64,000 bases of DNA from a bacterium (GTDB lineage: Bacteria; UBA8248): positions 2,080,001-2,144,000 of the forward strand of contig OZ242260.1 in NCBI GenBank assembly GCA_965207065.1, read 5' to 3'. The position numbers and the translations under genes are program-made. The first letter of the stretch is position 1. Every line of letters starts with the position of its first letter. Below the pieces are notes generated by a model. It did no database searches. It had not been told where the DNA came from and worked only from the letters and a program-made list of their open reading frames with translations. Positions 54,752 to 61,754 of this stretch are shown piece by piece.

Positions 54752-56791
54752 ATGAAGCGTCCCGCGCTCGAGATGAGAAGAAACATCGGCATCATCTCCC
54801 ACATCGACGCAGGAAAAACAACGACCACCGAGCGCATGCTGTTCTACTCCGGAGCCGTGCACCGGATTGGGGAGGTGGATGAGGGTTCGGCCACCATGGA
54901 CTGGATGAGCCAGGAGCGCGAACGCGGCATCACCATCACCTCAGCGGCCATCACCACAACCTGGGCGGAACATGAGATCACCATCATCGATACTCCAGGC
55001 CACGTGGATTTCACGATCGAAGTAGAAAGAAGCCTGCGCGTGCTTGATGGCGCAATCGCAATCTTCAGTGCGGTGGAAGGCGTAGAGCCGCAGAGCGAGA
55101 CCGTATGGCGGCAAGCGGATAAGTTCGGCGTGCCCAGGCTCGCCTTCATCAACAAGCTGGATCGCATGGGTGCGGATTTCGAGAGAACCGTCGAAATGAT
55201 GGTCGAAAAATTAGGCGCGCGGCCTGTGCTCATGCACTGGCCCGACGGGGAGGGTGAGGATTATACGGGCCAGGTGGAGGCGCTGAGTGGTGATTTCCTC
55301 ACCTGGGAGGGAAGAGAACTCCGTCGAAATGAACTCCCAGATACGCTCCAGGAGAAAGCACAGGAGTTGAAAGAAGCCCTTATCGAGGCGGTGGCGGATC
55401 ATGACGAGTCCGTGATGGAGGCGTATCTCGAAGGGCGCGCCGTCGACGCAGAAACGCTCAAGGCGGGCTTGCGGAGCGCCGTGCTCTCGGGCGAACTCGT
55501 GCCTGTTTTTTGCGGGTCATCCCTGAAGAACAAAGGGGTGCAGCCACTGCTGGATGCTGTGGTGGATTATTTGCCCTCCCCGGTGGATGCGCCGCCCGCG
55601 ATCGGTTTTGCTCCGGGTGAAAATGAGCCAATCACCCGTCCGCCCGCCCAAGATGCGCCTTTCTCCGCTCTGGTCTTCAAGGTTCAAATCGATGGGGGCA
55701 GGCGACTCACTTATCTGCGGGTGTACAGCGGCAGTGCCAAGGTGGGCGAGAGCCTCTGGAACCCCGCAAGGGGAGACAGCGAACGTTTCGCCCGGTTGTT
55801 CAGGATGTATTCTCACAAGCGCGAGCGTCTCGACGCCGTGGGGCCGGGAGACATCGTCGCGGCGGCGGGCATGAAGGAAGCAGCTACGGGCGATACCCTT
55901 TGTGACCGCAAAGAGCCGATTGCCTACGAGTCGATTCTCGCGCCTCAGCCCGTCATCTCGGTTGCGATCGAACCCAGGGACGCCACGGGGACCAAGAAGC
56001 TGGGCGAGACTCTGGCGAAACTCCAGGCGGAAGACCCGACGTTTCAGGTGAGAGTGGATTCCGAATCCGGCCAGACGGTGATGAGCGGCATGGGTGAGCT
56101 TCATCTGGAGGTGCTCACACGTCGGATAGACGAGGACTTCGGCGTGAACGTGCGGGTCGGCGCGCCTCGCGTAGTCTACCGCGAGACGTTAGCAAAAAAA
56201 GCCGAGGCGGACGCCACCTTCGACAGGGAATTGGCCGGCGAGCCTCAGTTCGCAAGGGTGCGCGTGGGTGTAGCCCCCAGACCCGGCGGAGGCGTCTCGT
56301 GCAAGAGTGCGGTGGACGACACGGCTGTTCCTGAAAATCTGATTGCGGCTGCGTTGGATTCGCTCCGGGCGTCTACTTCGAGCGGCGCCATGGCGGGCTA
56401 TGAGATGACCGACGTGAGCGTCACCTTGCTCGAGGCGGACTATGACGCGGAGTGCGCCACGGAGGCCGCCTTCTCCATCGCGGCGGCGAACGCATTCACC
56501 GAAGCCTGCCGCGCCGCTGGCGGAAAGCTTTTAGAACCCGTCATGTCGGTGGAAGTCGTGGCGACCGGTGAGTTTCTGGGCGGAATCATCGGCGACATCA
56601 ACGCGCGTGACGGAAAAGTCTCCGGCGTGGAAGAGCGCGGCGGTGCGTCACCTGTGAGCGTGGTGCGCGCATCCGTGCCGCTCGCCAAAGTGTTCGGTTA
56701 CGCCACCTCCCTGCGTTCCGCCACCCAGGGCCGCGCCACCTATACCATGCGCTTTTCCCACTACGCCCCCTGTGAGATGGCCGGGGTGTAG
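54752..56791 (+). CDS. fusA: Elongation factor G paralog (outside the str operon)
   Basis: HIDAGKTTTTER, RGITI, DTPGH, NKLD, GMGELHL; divergent domain IV. Confidence 0.9.
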   Translation: MKRPALEMRRNIGIISHIDAGKTTTTERMLFYSGAVHRIGEVDEGSATMDWMSQERERGITITSAAITTTWAEHEITIIDTPGHVDFTIEVERSLRVLDGAIAIFSAVEGVEPQSETVWRQADKFGVPRLAFINKLDRMGADFERTVEMMVEKLGARPVLMHWPDGEGEDYTGQVEALSGDFLTWEGRELRRNELPDTLQEKAQELKEALIEAVADHDESVMEAYLEGRAVDAETLKAGLRSAVLSGELVPVFCGSSLKNKGVQPLLDAVVDYLPSPVDAPPAIGFAPGENEPITRPPAQDAPFSALVFKVQIDGGRRLTYLRVYSGSAKVGESLWNPARGDSERFARLFRMYSHKRERLDAVGPGDIVAAAGMKEAATGDTLCDRKEPIAYESILAPQPVISVAIEPRDATGTKKLGETLAKLQAEDPTFQVRVDSESGQTVMSGMGELHLEVLTRRIDEDFGVNVRVGAPRVVYRETLAKKAEADATFDRELAGEPQFARVRVGVAPRPGGGVSCKSAVDDTAVPENLIAAALDSLRASTSSGAMAGYEMTDVSVTLLEADYDAECATEAAFSIAAANAFTEACRAAGGKLLEPVMSVEVVATGEFLGGIIGDINARDGKVSGVEERGGASPVSVVRASVPLAKVFGYATSLRSATQGRATYTMRFSHYAPCEMAGV

Positions 56792-56838: not shown

Positions 56839-57720
56839 ATGACCACCATCACCCTCTCGGTTCTCTTCTCGCTCTCCACGGCGCTCGTGGTCGGCTCCTT
56901 CACCCTGTTCGTGAGAAGCGGGCAGCGGCACGCGAACGCGGTGTCGGGCGTTCTCATCGGGCTTATCGTATCCATGCCGCCGCTGCTCGTTGGCGCGGTC
57001 TGGATGTGGGAGCCCGCCCACTACCAACCTTTGGGCTGGCTCTTCTTCGCACTGGCCGGTATCGCGGGGCCCGCCGTGGGCAGGGTGTGTTTCTTTCATT
57101 CGATTCATCTGATGGGCGTGGCGCGCGCGGTGCCGCTCAATTCCACCATGCCGCTTTTCTCTGCGATAGCCGGCATATATGTCCTGGGCGAGAAACCGGG
57201 GCTGTATATTCTGGCGGGTACGGTGCTCATTGTCTTGGGGTGTATGGGGATCACCGCGAGAAGAGGGGAGTCCCAGCCCATTCGGGGAGAATACCTGCTC
57301 ATCGCGCTCGGGAGCGCGGTTTTCTTCTCCATCTCGCACATGTTGCGAAAACTCGGCGTGGGCGCGTCGCCCAACCCGTTTCTGGGCATATCGATCATGA
57401 GCATCGCGGGTGGGGTGTTCCTCTATATCTCCGGGCAGTATCTGCCGCGTGGATTGAGGCCTTCTCTGATGGTGAAAAAAGCGTGGGTGACCTACAGCAT
57501 CGGCGGCTTGCTGAACACCCTTTCTGTTCTCCTGCATCTTTACGGCCTTCACTACGGAGACCTCACCATCGTGATCCCTCTCGCCGCCACCGCACCCTTG
57601 TGGGCGCTGCTGCTCACGGCCATTTTCTTGCGCAAACTCGAGCGCATCACCTGGCCGATCCTTCTGGGCACGGTAGCGGTAGTCGTAGGAGGCGCGCTCG
57701 TGGCCGGCCGTGCGCTGTAA
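56839..57720 (+). CDS. DMT/EamA-family transporter
   Basis: About 10 TMs, GVARA.PL, LGE, E.IT...LG. Confidence 0.88.
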   Translation: MTTITLSVLFSLSTALVVGSFTLFVRSGQRHANAVSGVLIGLIVSMPPLLVGAVWMWEPAHYQPLGWLFFALAGIAGPAVGRVCFFHSIHLMGVARAVPLNSTMPLFSAIAGIYVLGEKPGLYILAGTVLIVLGCMGITARRGESQPIRGEYLLIALGSAVFFSISHMLRKLGVGASPNPFLGISIMSIAGGVFLYISGQYLPRGLRPSLMVKKAWVTYSIGGLLNTLSVLLHLYGLHYGDLTIVIPLAATAPLWALLLTAIFLRKLERITWPILLGTVAVVVGGALVAGRAL

Positions 57721-57806
57721 CGAAGCAGGGTCCGCTTCTTTCTGTTATATTGGTAACGGTTCCAGATTATTCCGGAGCGTCGCCTAGCCAACTCTTGAGT
57801 GTCCAC

Positions 57807-58202
57807 ATGGGCGTTTCGCAAAAGTTTATATCGTTAGGTTTGGCATCCCTTTTTCTCCTTGTTCTGGCCGCATCCGGCAACCATCGGGTGCACCACCTGG
57901 AGCAGGAGGTTCAGACCCTCCTGGGGCATTCCGCGAATGCACATCACGCGCATGAAAATCACGAGGGGCATCATCACGGGGATCACCCAGATGATGCCGG
58001 ACAGGTACATAGCACCTGCGTACTGGCGACAGCGGGACAATGGGCGCAAGACAATAAGGCGGATGACCTGGTCCTTATCCATGCAGCGAATGAGGCGAAC
58101 CCACTGTTTCTTCAGGAAATTTTTCTTGTGCGCGATTCCTTGTTTTTCAACCTCTCTCCGCGCGCCCCGCCTATTCCTCTCCTCTCGTTCGCCAGTCTGT
58201 AA
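57807..58202 (+). CDS. His-rich exported leader protein with C-terminal RAPP motif (DUF2946/CruR/CutF-like)
   Basis: N-terminal hydrophobic signal, HSANAHHAHENHEGHHHGDH, single Cys, SPRAPP 9 residues before the stop. Confidence 0.75.
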   Translation: MGVSQKFISLGLASLFLLVLAASGNHRVHHLEQEVQTLLGHSANAHHAHENHEGHHHGDHPDDAGQVHSTCVLATAGQWAQDNKADDLVLIHAANEANPLFLQEIFLVRDSLFFNLSPRAPPIPLLSFASL

Positions 58203-58261
58203 TTTTTCGCTACAGGAAAAGAATCTGCGCCCTGCGAGGCTCCTTTTGAGGGAGGGTGGAT

Positions 58262-58687
58262 ATGAAATCCATTTTCAAGGTTTTTTGTGCTTTCGCGCTG
58301 ATCTTTATTTTTCAGGCAATGCCCGCCCAGAGTGCGGGTAAAGATGGTACTCATCAAGGGGGGAAATCCCCGGTAAAAAGCAAGGAGATGAGCGGCATCA
58401 CGCTCCAGATCGCCGGTGGGAAGATCAAAGGCAACAAAAAAGTGGTTCGCGTGAAGCAAGGCGATGAAGTCAAGCTGAATCTGATGGCCGATAAAACAAC
58501 GGAAGTCCATCTCCACGGTTACGACATCGAAAAAACCGTCTCCCCGGGCCGGGTGAACGTGATGGCGTTTCGGGCCAGAGTGGCGGGCCGGTTTCCCGTA
58601 ACGGAACACGGATCTCACTCCCACGGGAAGAAAAAAAGCGGGGGCCATGGTGAGAAGGTGCTCTTCTACCTGGAGGTGCACCCATGA
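58262..58687 (+). CDS. Periplasmic cupredoxin-like, His-rich protein
   Basis: Signal peptide, V.QGD.V.L, EVHLHGYD, GRFPV.EHGSHSH, LEV.P; no Cys in the mature part. Confidence 0.75.
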   Translation: MKSIFKVFCAFALIFIFQAMPAQSAGKDGTHQGGKSPVKSKEMSGITLQIAGGKIKGNKKVVRVKQGDEVKLNLMADKTTEVHLHGYDIEKTVSPGRVNVMAFRARVAGRFPVTEHGSHSHGKKKSGGHGEKVLFYLEVHP

Positions 58688-58700
58688 CGAGGATGATCCC

Positions 58701-60152
58701 ATGAGCTTTTTTATCCGGGGACTTTGGCTCGCAGCCGCTGTTGTTTTTCTCCCAACCATCGCGTCGGCGCATGGGTTCGGACAAAGGTATGACCTGCCCG
58801 TGCCGCTGGGTTTGTTCATGCTCGGGGCGGGTGCATCCGTGGTCCTTTCGTTTCTGGGCATGGGGCTTTTCGTGCGCAAAAAACATGATAGTGTGGACTA
58901 TCCGAGTTGTGACCTTCTCACCTCCCCCCTTTTCGCGTGGATGGGAAATCGAGTATTTCTCTCGGTCATAAGAGTGCTTTCAGTTGTTATGTTCTGCGTG
59001 ACACTGGTGGCGGGCTTCTGGGGGAGTGAAAACCCGGATAAGAATATCGTGCCGACCATGGTCTGGATCATCTGGTGGGTGGGACTGGCATATGTGTGCG
59101 CGCTGGCGGGGAATCTGTGGTCGCTGGTAAATCCATGGAGCGTCATATTTTCCTGGGCGGAGGCGCTGTACAAGAAAATCAAGCCCGGCGCTTCCCTATC
59201 GCCCGCGCAACCGTTCTCCGAACGCCCGGGCGTGTGGCCGGCTGTGGGTTTGTTCCTGTGGTTCGCTTGGGCTGAGATTGTCTGGCCGCACAACGACCTC
59301 CCCCGCAACCTCGCAGTCGCCACCCTTGGGTATTCCATCATCACATGGGCGGGTATGTACCTGTACGGTAAAGATGCGTGGCTCGAGCGCGGGGAGGCGT
59401 TTTCCATCTTATTCGGCGTGATGGGCCGATTCTCGATCACCGAGGCTCGCACGAGTGGAACCGGAAGAAGTGAATGGCGAATGAGGCCGCCGGCAGTGGG
59501 CCTTCTGAACACAGACGGCATGAGCAACTCCATGGTGGTGTTCGTGGTGTTGATGCTGGCGACGGTGAGTTTCGACGGTTTTACCGAAACGCCGCTTTGG
59601 CACCAAATTCGCGCAGGGTTATACGAGGTGGTCATCTGGATTGGGCGCGACGCTCTGCTGGTGGCGGATACCATCGCGCTCATCGCAGCTCCGGGGCTGT
59701 TCCTGGGCGTATATTACCTGTTCTGCATTCTGATGCGCGCCATGAGCGGGAGCACGCTCTCCACGGGGGAATTCGCGCGCCTGTTCGTGCTCTCGCTGGT
59801 TCCCATCGCGATTGGATACCACGTGGCGCATTATTTCTCCTTTCTCTTCATTCAGGGACAACGCATCATCCCGCTGTTGTCGGATCCCTTCGGAGTGGGC
59901 TGGAACCTGTGGGGAACCGCCTCTTATAAGATCGACATCGGGATCATCGGCGCGAAGGCGACCTGGTATGCTTCGATCGCCGCAATCGTCATCGGCCATA
60001 TATGCGCGGTTTACCTGGCGCATGTGACGGCGCTGCGCGCACTCGAGAACCGTTTCGCCGCCGTGCGCAGCCAATATCCGATGCTCGTTCTCATGGTGGG
60101 CTACACCATGGTGAGCTTGTGGATCATCGCACAACCTATTACAGGGGGCTGA
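58701..60152 (+). CDS. Polytopic membrane protein ('fenitrothion hydrolase'-annotated family), candidate metal transporter
   Basis: ASA|HGFGQRYDLPVP, WVGL, NPW, FDG, LVPIA.GY..AHY, SDPFG.GW, GH..AV..AH, MVGYT..SLW. Confidence 0.7.
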   Translation: MSFFIRGLWLAAAVVFLPTIASAHGFGQRYDLPVPLGLFMLGAGASVVLSFLGMGLFVRKKHDSVDYPSCDLLTSPLFAWMGNRVFLSVIRVLSVVMFCVTLVAGFWGSENPDKNIVPTMVWIIWWVGLAYVCALAGNLWSLVNPWSVIFSWAEALYKKIKPGASLSPAQPFSERPGVWPAVGLFLWFAWAEIVWPHNDLPRNLAVATLGYSIITWAGMYLYGKDAWLERGEAFSILFGVMGRFSITEARTSGTGRSEWRMRPPAVGLLNTDGMSNSMVVFVVLMLATVSFDGFTETPLWHQIRAGLYEVVIWIGRDALLVADTIALIAAPGLFLGVYYLFCILMRAMSGSTLSTGEFARLFVLSLVPIAIGYHVAHYFSFLFIQGQRIIPLLSDPFGVGWNLWGTASYKIDIGIIGAKATWYASIAAIVIGHICAVYLAHVTALRALENRFAAVRSQYPMLVLMVGYTMVSLWIIAQPITGG

Positions 60153-60306: not shown

Positions 60307-61188
60307 ATGAACGATGCGCTGCTGGCGGCGGGGTTCGCCCTGGGTACCGCATCGATGTCCTCGGCCTTCAGCCTCATCGCCAGACGCGGGCAGCAGCATG
60401 GCACAGCCATAACGGGTGTCGTAATCGGCCTGATTGTGAATGTCCCCTGGCTGGTGGCGCTGACCATCCTCACCTGGGAGCCCGCCTATTGGAGTTCGGA
60501 GGCCTGGTTCTGGTTCTTCTTGTCGGGCATCACGGGGCCCTCGCTCGGCCGCGTGTTCATGTTCCGGGCGATACATCGACTGGGCGTCTCACGTGCGGTT
60601 CCCCTCCTGGCGGCCAATCCGCTTTTTTCAGCCGGTTTCGCCTATATCTTTCTGGGTGAGCGGCCGGGGCCTTACGTGTGGGCGGGAATTTTCCTGGTTG
60701 TTTTAGGCTGTGTGGGAATTACCTATCAGCGCAAAAGCGACGCTCCCTGGGACAGGCGCGCCATCTGGCTGCCGCTATTGTCCGTTTTGGGGTTTTCCAC
60801 GTCGAACATTTTCAGAAAAATCGGGATCGAGGTTGTTCCTTCCGCACTGCTCGGCATCACGCTCACCAGTTTTTTCGGTTTGGTGGCGCTGGTCGCGGTT
60901 TTGTGGTTTCTGCCCAAACCCCAGCGTCCCTCTCTGAAATGGGGAAAAGCCTGGCATTTCTATGGACCCTGCGGACTCATTAACACGCTGGCGTTTTTGA
61001 GTCATTTCGCTGCTTTGAAGTATGGGGATATTTCGGTCGTGTCACCGCTTTCTTCCACGGCGCCGCTTTTCGCGCTCTTTTACTCCTGGATATTTCTGCG
61101 CGATATGGAGCGTATCACGCTTCCCATATTGCTGGGGACGGTCTGCGTCGTCGCGGGAGGAGTGATCATCGCCTTGAAAGCGATGTAG
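60307..61188 (+). CDS. DMT/EamA-family transporter (paralog of 56839-57720)
   Basis: Same motif layout: RRGQQH, GI.GP.LGRV, GVSRAVPL, YGD..VV.PL..TAPL. Confidence 0.88.
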   Translation: MNDALLAAGFALGTASMSSAFSLIARRGQQHGTAITGVVIGLIVNVPWLVALTILTWEPAYWSSEAWFWFFLSGITGPSLGRVFMFRAIHRLGVSRAVPLLAANPLFSAGFAYIFLGERPGPYVWAGIFLVVLGCVGITYQRKSDAPWDRRAIWLPLLSVLGFSTSNIFRKIGIEVVPSALLGITLTSFFGLVALVAVLWFLPKPQRPSLKWGKAWHFYGPCGLINTLAFLSHFAALKYGDISVVSPLSSTAPLFALFYSWIFLRDMERITLPILLGTVCVVAGGVIIALKAM

Positions 61189-61208: not shown

Positions 61209-61754
61209 TCAACCCGTAAGAAGCGTCCTGATCGTGGGAGCTATCTCCTTCGCGCGCCCGCGGAGTTGTTCATCCGTGAGGCTGCCCACCGGATGGGGGA
61301 TATAGGCCACCGGATAGTCCGGCATGCCGCGCACCTTGGAGACCATCTCGACTGTGGGACGAAAGGGCTCGGTGCAGATGACGGCCGTGGGAACGCCTTT
61401 TTTCTCCAGCTCGATTCCATCGTGCACACTGCACGAAGAGCAGGAGCCTCAGTCACCTACTGCAGTGATGGCGAGGTCGCATTTCTCGGCCATCTCCGCG
61501 TACACCTCGGGCTTCGCAGGTCTGGTATCGTATTCTTTCGATAACTCAACAGCGATGTCGGGATCCGCGCCGTCCGCCCGCAATTCATCCAGAATGTAGC
61601 GCATGAGCTTGTCCGCGCCCACTTTAGAGTTCCAGAGCAGGCCGATGCGTTTGCCGGAGAGTGCGCCGTCGCGGCTTGTGCGGTCTTCGGTTTCGATTTC
61701 CGGTTCCACTGTCGGATCGTAAATCGGTATCGCAGTATCTATCACGGGGTTCAT
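61209..61754 (-). CDS. UGSC-family selenoprotein (in-frame UGA at 61449-61451)
   Basis: Two track ORFs joined in frame: AITAVGD-U-GSCSSCSVHDGIELEKKGVPT; SECIS-like hairpin. Confidence 0.9.
61420..61436 (-). promoter_or_regulatory. Putative bacterial SECIS element
   Basis: UCGUGCA-GUG-UGCACGA hairpin starting 12 nt after the UGA. Confidence 0.72.

Follow-up and report, generated by a model that had tools for sequence, protein, structure and literature searches.

In the 64,000-nucleotide (nt) stretch of bacterial DNA analysed here (the window: positions 2,080,001 to 2,144,000 of contig OZ242260.1, assembly GCA_965207065.1, lineage UBA8248), a small gene for a protein of 131 amino acids (aa) that ends in the arrest motif RAPP, referred to below as the leader, stands directly ahead of genes for an exported cupredoxin and for a polytopic membrane protein of an unnamed family, together referred to as the pair. 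We give even chances to the reading that the leader is an attenuator of the CruR type, with a changed metal site, which controls a copper-acquisition module. Taken part by part, and judged by analogy to known arrest peptides, the leader very probably arrests ribosomes, and it likely controls the pair in a metal-dependent manner; given such control, copper is the favoured metal, and metal would likely release the stall rather than induce it. The original prediction, made from the letters of the DNA alone, had placed a RAPP leader of the CruR/CutF kind ahead of an uncharacterised metal-handling pair, which the conservation of RAPP in homologous operons supports. What is new here is a CruR-like variant that is tied to a large unnamed metal-handling module and that shows an unusual trans-species presence/absence polymorphism.

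The leader is a gene under selection

The leader open reading frame (ORF), 57807-58202, is nested in a 398-aa frame with a GTG start (57006-58202) that overlaps an EamA gene, and the proposal that a 131-aa gene hides in this longer, spurious frame held up: the ratio of non-synonymous to synonymous substitution rates (dN/dS) is 0.42 over eight orthologues, and the frame is open in 8/8. The seven orthologues are 57-85% identical, third codon positions are the most variable (40/42/60 variable sites at first, second and third positions), and the changes in the RAPP codons are all synonymous among the eight. Clearly, the leader is a gene under selection. A spurious ORF is ruled out by the dN/dS, the open frames and the conservation of the motif, and an assembly artefact by one sponge-metagenome contig that covers the whole stretch and by the presence of the leader in 3/3 sponge-related DNA runs. 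On the RNA side, one run yielded three short contigs.

The translation confirmed the anticipated signal or transmembrane-like segment at a hydrophobic N-terminus, the dense His (14 residues), the single Cys (C71) and the RAPP (58161-58172), which lies nine residues ahead of the stop. In the whole 4.48-Mb genome, 88 of 25,778 stop-to-stop frames of >=80 aa end in R[AG]PP or RAGP, and three of these 88 also have a hydrophobic segment and His or CxxC, the His cluster of the leader being the densest by far. The leader is also the best DUF2946 match in the genome, and it is the sole convincing frame of its kind there. In 2,224 long coding-like ORFs, RAPP and RGPP occur once, as opposed to 17 occurrences of AAPP and AGPP, indicating that RAPP/RGPP is avoided. 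The features of the locus are as follows.

56839-57720, + strand: EamA gene, 5' neighbour of the leader
57721..58400, + strand: putative exchangeable regulatory cassette (approximate, from sliding identity of sister pairs), comprising promoter region, leader, intergenic DNA and cupredoxin signal peptide
57743..57751, + strand: putative extended -10-like promoter element, TG-n-TATAnT, from the alignment of 18 intergenic regions
57779..57792, + strand: upstream copy of a short direct repeat bounding the leader, degenerate in the window genome
57807..58202, + strand: leader ORF, 131 aa, DUF2946/CruR-like candidate arrest peptide (translation; DUF2946 score 22.2 bits; dN/dS 0.42)
57825..57875, + strand: hydrophobic signal-peptide or transmembrane segment of the leader, by hydropathy alone
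57882..57896, + strand: H26-x-x-H29-H30 of the leader, invariant in the family by alignment
57927..57986, + strand: variable His-rich linker of the leader, H41-H60
58017..58019, + strand: Cys71 of the leader, 47 residues ahead of the RAPP Arg, corresponding in position to the first Cys in the CxxC of CruR
58151..58159, + strand: pyrimidine tract 1, possible anti-ribosome-binding site (anti-RBS), within the footprint of a stalled ribosome
58161..58172, + strand: RAPP codons
58176..58186, + strand: pyrimidine tract 2, possible anti-RBS in a C-rich stretch that could also serve Rho loading
58189..58198, + strand: downstream copy of the short direct repeat; both copies are joined in leaderless alleles
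58239..58256, + strand: local hairpin covering the RBS, with the cupredoxin RBS (58248-58256)
58262..58687, + strand: cupredoxin gene, exported single-domain product with invariant H83-x-H85-G-Y and H116, type-1 Cys absent
58701..60152, + strand: polytopic membrane protein, 483 aa, unnamed family, with His24 after the predicted cleavage site and invariant His377, His433 and His441
60307-61188, + strand: second EamA gene, 3' neighbour of the membrane protein gene

The extended -10-like element at 57743..57751 was not detected by a sigma-70 scan.

The leader family keeps the Cys-to-RAPP distance of CruR

Thirteen leader carriers came out of searches covering 44 and 51 related genomes, and in 13/13 the leader comes first, followed by genes for exported His-rich or metal proteins. 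Five of the homologues are distant and come from four other genera. The proposed check of whether homologous operons keep the RAPP gave 8/8 orthologues and 5/5 distant homologues. A marine family of 136 aa ends in RGPP and has the matching H-x-x-H-H and Cys, and its member L044 heads the same gene pair. In an alignment of nine leaders, H26, H29, H30, C71, R119, P121 and P122 are invariant, and the linker is variable. By hand count, the distance from the Cys to the Arg of RAPP is 47 in P0001, L121, L123, L124 and L125, which are only 20-30% alike, and 48 in L044; the linker from HxxHH to the Cys measures 37 (L124), 40 (P0001) or 47 (L125) residues.

In CruR (Bp2923) of Bordetella pertussis, the CxxC occupies positions 90-93 with 45 residues to RAPP, and this spacing is conserved within 1-2 residues and required for regulation (PMC9426467). 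This puts Cys90 at 48, and, as the leader Cys lies at 47-48 from the RAPP Arg, the lone Cys occupies the place of the first Cys of CruR. The two leaders also share the position as first gene of a putative metal operon, an export signal (for the window leader by hydropathy only), the C-terminal RAPP, a C-rich stall site and a Rho gene in the genome. Further traits of CruR-type leaders found here are a length below 150 aa and a metal gene next on the same strand. Unlike CruR, the window leader has one Cys instead of a CxxC, an invariant HxxHH and a His-rich linker, and it is present or absent as alleles; the intergenic region is 59 nt vs 162 nt for CruR, and the target is a cupredoxin with an unnamed inner-membrane protein, as opposed to a TonB receptor. 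Thus, the idea of a site based on His rather than CxxC stood only in part: CxxC is absent, but one Cys is invariant in the nine leaders, at the CruR spacing from RAPP. We read the leader as a relative of CruR minus one Cys, plus His ligands, and not as a formal member of DUF2946.

Proteins with C-terminal RAPP or RGPP arrested ribosomes in 7/7 cases tested in S. lividans, as did CruR, and ORFs of this kind are enriched ahead of metal genes (Fujiwara et al., PMC12992588). With ApdA, ApdP and the S. lividans set, the leader shares its nature as a small secretory protein, RAPP near the C-terminus, a metal-homeostasis gene next and avoidance of the motif elsewhere; neither the leader family nor its target appears in the available text of PMC12992588 on these peptides. 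His-only leaders of the CutF-like kind as such have already been predicted in print, as clusters 14 and 17, upstream of HupE/UreJ nickel/cobalt genes (Oztuerk et al., PMC9973294, 10.1101/2022.11.11.516240). The window leader family may overlap with one of these clusters; in a comparison by text alone, the words 'cupredoxin', 'Nitrospin' and 'Tectomicrobia' were absent from the main text of PMC9973294. Among the published titles listed, none concerns an operon of leader, cupredoxin and membrane protein, and the leader family could sit unnamed in the supplementary tables of PMC9973294 or PMC12992588.

Among the distant homologues, those in G041 and G029 (L121 and L124) are followed by the gene of an exported, His/Met-rich protein in which a DUF4399-like domain is weakly recognised, and a longer one in G032 (L122) stands ahead of a His/Met-rich multi-haem c protein. 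An HxHIYxDG domain similar to the DUF4399-like one appears inserted in Chloroflexota cupredoxins (L037, L039, L071, L072).

The cupredoxin and the membrane protein form a widespread pair

The cupredoxin, which had been described as His-rich and Cys-less, indeed has 8 His and a Cys-less mature part, but one Cys is located in its signal peptide. The closest folds to its model (predicted local distance difference test, pLDDT, 89.6) are CuA domains, FtrB and nitrosocyanin. The fold agrees with that of type-1 (blue) copper proteins, but their His-Cys-His-Met site is absent from this domain without Cys. H83-x-H85-G-Y and H116 were found in 35/35 aligned cupredoxins, none of which has Cys (three loci without the HxH motif were left out of the alignment), and the HxH motif resembles that of multicopper oxidases. 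A cupredoxin match lies upstream of the membrane protein in 65/80 loci, and 3 of the 15 misses have no upstream DNA; the pair spans many phyla. In four family members (L123:1946-2885, L107, L109, L111), a c-type haem (CxxCH) domain is fused ahead of the cupredoxin, hinting that electrons may pass to or from the module.

The family of the membrane protein comprises 4,566 clusters at 50% identity and has no entry in Pfam or NCBIfam, with no Pfam match among 59 members; a sequence search of PDB gave nothing either. The predicted mature N-terminus is indeed a His: His24 follows A-S-A, the predicted cleavage site, and is invariant, together with His377, in 125/125 aligned homologues, and His433, His441 and Asp292 are invariant in 59/59. 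When the whole 483-aa model (pLDDT 95) was queried against solved structures, Foldseek gave no match at E 0.001 (best VIA Z 6.7 over 98 residues). A remote profile alignment matches residues 121-289 to 22 Fer4_5 proteins (probability 86%, pairwise E 5e-6; EamA controls 0.1 and 0.7%), suggesting that the N-terminal half is remotely like polyferredoxins of the NapH/YccM type, to which we take FtrD to belong. Both CxxxCP motifs of Fer4_5 are replaced in it, all Fe-S Cys of a polyferredoxin being lost, and it differs further from NapH/YccM in its N-terminal His and in an additional C-terminal half, where three His are conserved. Neither source names nor papers bore out 'fenitrothion hydrolase' as a label for the family. 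Some members of the family are fused to a 400-aa C-terminal domain without a Pfam match (P0004, P0009, P0099), and others to Cu/Zn superoxide dismutase (P0061), a YtkA-like protein (P0048) or TPR (P0007, P0084).

The copper acquisition systems CopC/CopD and YcnJ/YcnI have a His at the N-terminus after the signal peptide and a His-bearing membrane protein, and the pair is like them in its N-terminal His after the signal and in its YtkA-like and CopCD neighbours; neither sequence nor fold of the cupredoxin or the membrane protein matched CopC or CopD. FtrB of FtrABCD, a non-canonical cupredoxin that is the structure match of rank 7 to the window cupredoxin (template modelling score, TM, 0.75 of target), also stands beside a membrane protein (PMC11966278), but the window operon has no FtrA or FtrC.

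Gene context favours copper

Of 311 neighbour ORFs of the pair, 52 were scanned with NCBIfam, and 35, plus 5 from plasmid loci, with Pfam. The metal-related ones are CopC-CopD directly upstream (L078), PCuAC (L019, L086), Cu-ATPase (L059), SodC (L035) and YtkA-like proteins. Among 66 plasmid matches, six were examined: one locus each holds PCuAC, galactose oxidase (L088), copper monooxygenase genes together with SigC (L085), or a heavy-metal ATPase with iron transporters, and two have no metal genes. SigC has been linked to copper starvation. Genes for Rho and for a haem-copper oxidase are present in the genome (96% complete), in which no match to CopD or PCuAC was found. Since the metal-related neighbours are copper genes, copper appears likelier than nickel, zinc or cobalt, on a thin base, and the range of nickel, zinc, cobalt or copper originally proposed narrows: CopC-CopD, PCuAC, Cu-ATPase and SodC fit copper, and the other three metals are disfavoured.

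We consider it unlikely that the same stalling switch serves nickel, cobalt or zinc as the sensed and transported metal. The 14 His with one Cys and the published His-only clusters would suit such a switch, as would the urease of the genome, in which no HupE/UreJ match was found, and two membrane protein homologues that are extended at the C-terminus by a long domain matching no Pfam family; the sole nickel-related hint in the context is a HypC-type gene about 3.7 kb off on the opposite strand in a Pseudonocardia locus. However, no nickel, cobalt or zinc uptake gene occurs among the neighbour proteins scanned, and the cupredoxin fold, the HxH as in multicopper oxidases, and the copper-gene neighbours and fusions all argue for copper.

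Two plasmid contexts of the membrane protein gene are of separate interest. In Mycobacterium dioxanotrophicus (L085:5983-11563), it has sigC on one side and a copper membrane monooxygenase operon on the other. On plasmids of rhizobia and Sulfitobacter (L084, L086), it occurs with no cupredoxin gene beside it, within nicotinate-degradation clusters (molybdoenzyme, 6-hydroxynicotinate reductase), in one case divergent from PCuAC.

Unrelated leaders stand ahead of the same pair

A filter for small ORFs with a hydrophobic segment, His-richness and a PP tail retained 33/593 same-strand ORFs upstream of the pair vs 3/2,410 others, and 30 were judged leaders on inspection. The same filter applied to 66 metagenome loci retained 15/224 upstream ORFs vs 3/756 others and added 13 leaders (L182-L212). 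In Chloroflexota, 20/33 loci (L029-L075) have a leader that lacks Cys, carries D-H-H behind its hydrophobic segment and ends in a PxxPP or PPP tail; a YtkA-like gene often lies between it and the pair. A common family with the window leader was rejected, as the Chloroflexota profile matched no leader outside that group (E 0.01). A third leader type occurs in Rubrobacter (L074). That leaders of the stalling type were recruited repeatedly speaks for a control of the pair by metal after transcription, though the pair can run leader-free. The Chloroflexota (SAR202-type) family (L029-L075 and L182-L212), abundant and unannotated, with DHH/NHH, HxH and a Pro-rich tail without RAPP, is itself a candidate family of arrest peptides.

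The leader is present or absent, probably as two old alleles

Among the 23 genomes of the genus, 18 have the pair; the leader is present in 8 of them, and about 400 bp are missing at the same place in the other 10. The promoter-like element is retained in both kinds of allele. One junction sequence, which joins the two 7-bp repeats flanking the leader, is found in 7/10 leaderless genomes; L015 and L017 have variants of it, and L012 has a different junction, representing an independent loss. A leader relocated elsewhere was not found in any of the 10 leaderless genomes, several of them near-complete, by searches with P0001 and profile A4, and no excision joints were seen in the contigs of three DNA runs, where rare variants are invisible. 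Since the outgroup genomes G003 and G039 carry the leader ahead of the pair, its presence is ancestral, and the leaderless allele was probably made once, by deletion between the 7-bp repeats. Presumably, this allele is unregulated.

On an unlinked rpoB+gyrA tree, the leader state changes about seven times, and a single clade of carriers is rejected (log-likelihood difference 1593; approximately unbiased test 7.6e-5, with 5,000 replicates only); five linked gene trees likewise scatter the two states. Sister pairs of opposite state are L013/L004, L008/L009, L011/L010, window/L001 and L002/L003+L005. In L013/L004 and L008/L009, the flanks are mostly 94-100% identical, but the DNA from the junction to the start codon is only 60 and 54% identical. 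Over this stretch, opposite-allele sisters are 51-60% identical in 4/5 pairs and 83% in a mosaic fifth, and carriers share an identity of 0.80 with one another and non-carriers one of 0.78, against 0.60 across the two classes. L005 and L009 are identical from junction to start codon, yet 93.6% alike in core genes; L010, L011 and L016 are mosaics. The DNA beside the leader site thus sorts by allele, not by species, which suggests two old regulatory alleles swapped by homologous recombination, and we infer selection maintaining both. Some older allele cases may instead be retained ancestral polymorphism with no later exchange.

Repeated independent deletion, or drift of a decaying leader, would also give a patchy distribution. 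The 7-bp repeats make recurrent deletion mechanically easy, L012 has lost the leader independently, and the leaders of L011 and L016 have fewer His. However, such an origin seems rather improbable to us, given that the junction-to-start DNA differs so much more between opposite-allele sisters than within a class and is shared without change by L005 and L009. Two old alleles fit better than repeated fresh deletion.

A stalled ribosome may open the cupredoxin gene

If the leader works as its family suggests, ribosomes translating it would stall at RAPP, and the stalled ribosome would cover the C/U-rich region 58150-58190, leaving the cupredoxin RBS accessible and/or blocking Rho, so that cupredoxin and membrane protein would be made when copper is scarce. 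By analogy to CruR, Cys71, at that point just beyond the exit tunnel, would bind copper jointly with H26/H29/H30 and the His of the linker, and metal-bound folding would pull the chain free, leading to termination and to switching off of the downstream genes. The pair itself would capture copper at the outer side of the membrane, possibly with a redox step. Stalling is the ON state by the RBS route and by the Rho route, and metal should therefore release the stall if the pair is an uptake system.

The predicted pairing of a pyrimidine tract with the next RBS was borne out in so far as the tracts and a purine-rich RBS (58248-58256) are present and pairing is predicted. In free RNA of the window, the RBS pairs with the footprint at 0.60-0.85, and in the ensemble this pairing is split between the tracts at 58151-58159 (0.29) and 58176-58186 (0.43). 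Footprint-RBS complementarity exceeded a synonymous null in L121 (p 0.009), L122 (0.014), L124 (0.005) and L074 (0.012) and was marginal in L123 (p 0.051); the p-values of L121 to L125 and the window, combined by hand, give about 2e-4, a figure to be read with the post-hoc choice and the kinship of these sequences in mind. L044 was excluded from this test, as no start was found, and the anti-RBS signal is absent in Chloroflexota leaders, whose start codons are uncertain. Since the stall site is C-rich (33 C vs 14 G in the 86 nt of 58130-58215) and Rho is encoded in the genome, CruR-like Rho control may be an alternative route to RBS masking. A scan found no intrinsic terminator between leader and cupredoxin, and there was no Rfam match, and hence no riboswitch hit, in either allele (tested in L001, L004, L009 and L013).

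A number of observations speak against a CruR-type copper switch. The window fold is no better than that of shuffles (z -0.69), and complementarity does not beat the synonymous null in the window (p 0.37) or in L125 (p 0.64). Masking the footprint raises the unpaired probability of the window RBS just from 0.12-0.19 to 0.22-0.31, because the local hairpin then takes over the RBS; in L125 and L123, masking does not open the RBS at all. The consensus fold of eight alleles places the RBS in the local hairpin beyond the footprint, and leaderless RBSs are predicted closed too (0.10-0.53). In the leader itself, DUF2946 scores lie below the Pfam cut-off (PF11162, 23.7 bits): 22.2 and 21.7 bits for the window leader, 23.1 for L006 and 17.5 for L121, with no match at E 0.1 for L011, L044, L123, L124 and L125. 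The second Cys of the CxxC is replaced by Ala, Gly, Glu, Gln or Leu in the nine aligned leaders, and L122 deviates from the Cys-RAPP spacing. The leader is dispensable, as 10/18 pair-bearing members of the genus are without it, and no leader was seen at 40/63 distant loci. As for the metal, most of the 52 and 40 scanned neighbour proteins are housekeeping proteins and copper neighbours are few, the published His-only CutF-like clusters precede HupE/UreJ nickel/cobalt genes, and the urease of the genome implies that nickel is needed as well.

The opposite logic, that of CutF of Rhodobacter capsulatus, would have periplasmic copper strengthen stalling during export and turn the pair ON as a detoxification or metal-delivery device. 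The leader shares with CutF a putatively exported product, a putative metal site, a Pro-rich tail and a short intergenic region with a predicted RBS hairpin (PMC9973294, 10.1101/2025.02.05.636593). The HxxHH right behind the signal-like N-terminus, the 59-nt intergenic region, as in CutF, and the RBS-masking potential would fit this logic, as would the Pro-rich tails without RAPP of the Chloroflexota leaders and the Cu-ATPase and heavy-metal ATPase near two loci. Against it stand the match of RAPP and Cys spacing to CruR and the CopC-CopD, YtkA-like, PCuAC and SigC neighbours, which point to acquisition, and we hold it to be improbable.

Less probable still is a leader that acts as a small exported His-rich metal-binding protein or as a secretion monitor, with its RAPP uncoupled from metal control. 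RAPP peptides can also serve as Sec/YidC monitors, over half of the genus lacks the leader, and the RNA switch is weak in the window allele. However, such a leader would hardly be expected to stand first ahead of exported His-rich or metal proteins in 13/13 genomes, to keep its Cys-RAPP spacing fixed, and to have unrelated counterparts in the same place in other phyla. The CruR-type attenuator remains the reading that we prefer.

Neighbouring genes

The two EamA genes are paralogues with about 47% identity and lie on either side of the module in 16/17 close relatives, and their membership in it is unsupported by evidence; the first is frameshifted in L011 and L016, either truly or by assembly error. 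Two genes 5' of the leader lies a gene for an EF-G-like GTPase of 679 aa (54752-56791; assigned by eye, from motifs). On the minus strand at 61241-61754, two consecutive short ORFs appear to be one frame, split near 61449 by a TGA that lies in frame and within a C-x-x-C motif, a candidate for selenocysteine read-through; a 346-aa ORF follows the interrupted frame.

Implications

In the widest reading, ancient regulated and unregulated cassette alleles would be under balancing selection and traded between species of sponge symbionts, the module would be a new class of redox-coupled copper importer with a Cys-free polyferredoxin scaffold and an HxH cupredoxin, and unrelated stalling leaders would have been added to it in independent events in three or more phyla. 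As a whole, this reading is doubtful. The CruR-type attenuator by itself would extend metal sensing by stalling to a site of one Cys with His and beyond Proteobacteria, and the fixed Cys-RAPP spacing offers a sharp test for the 'fold and pull' model. The leaders would also provide a functional label for a very large unnamed family of membrane proteins, arguing for its regulation by metal, and the occurrence in nature of alleles with and without the leader, in backgrounds that are almost identical, provides a ready experiment on what such a switch may be worth in the host.

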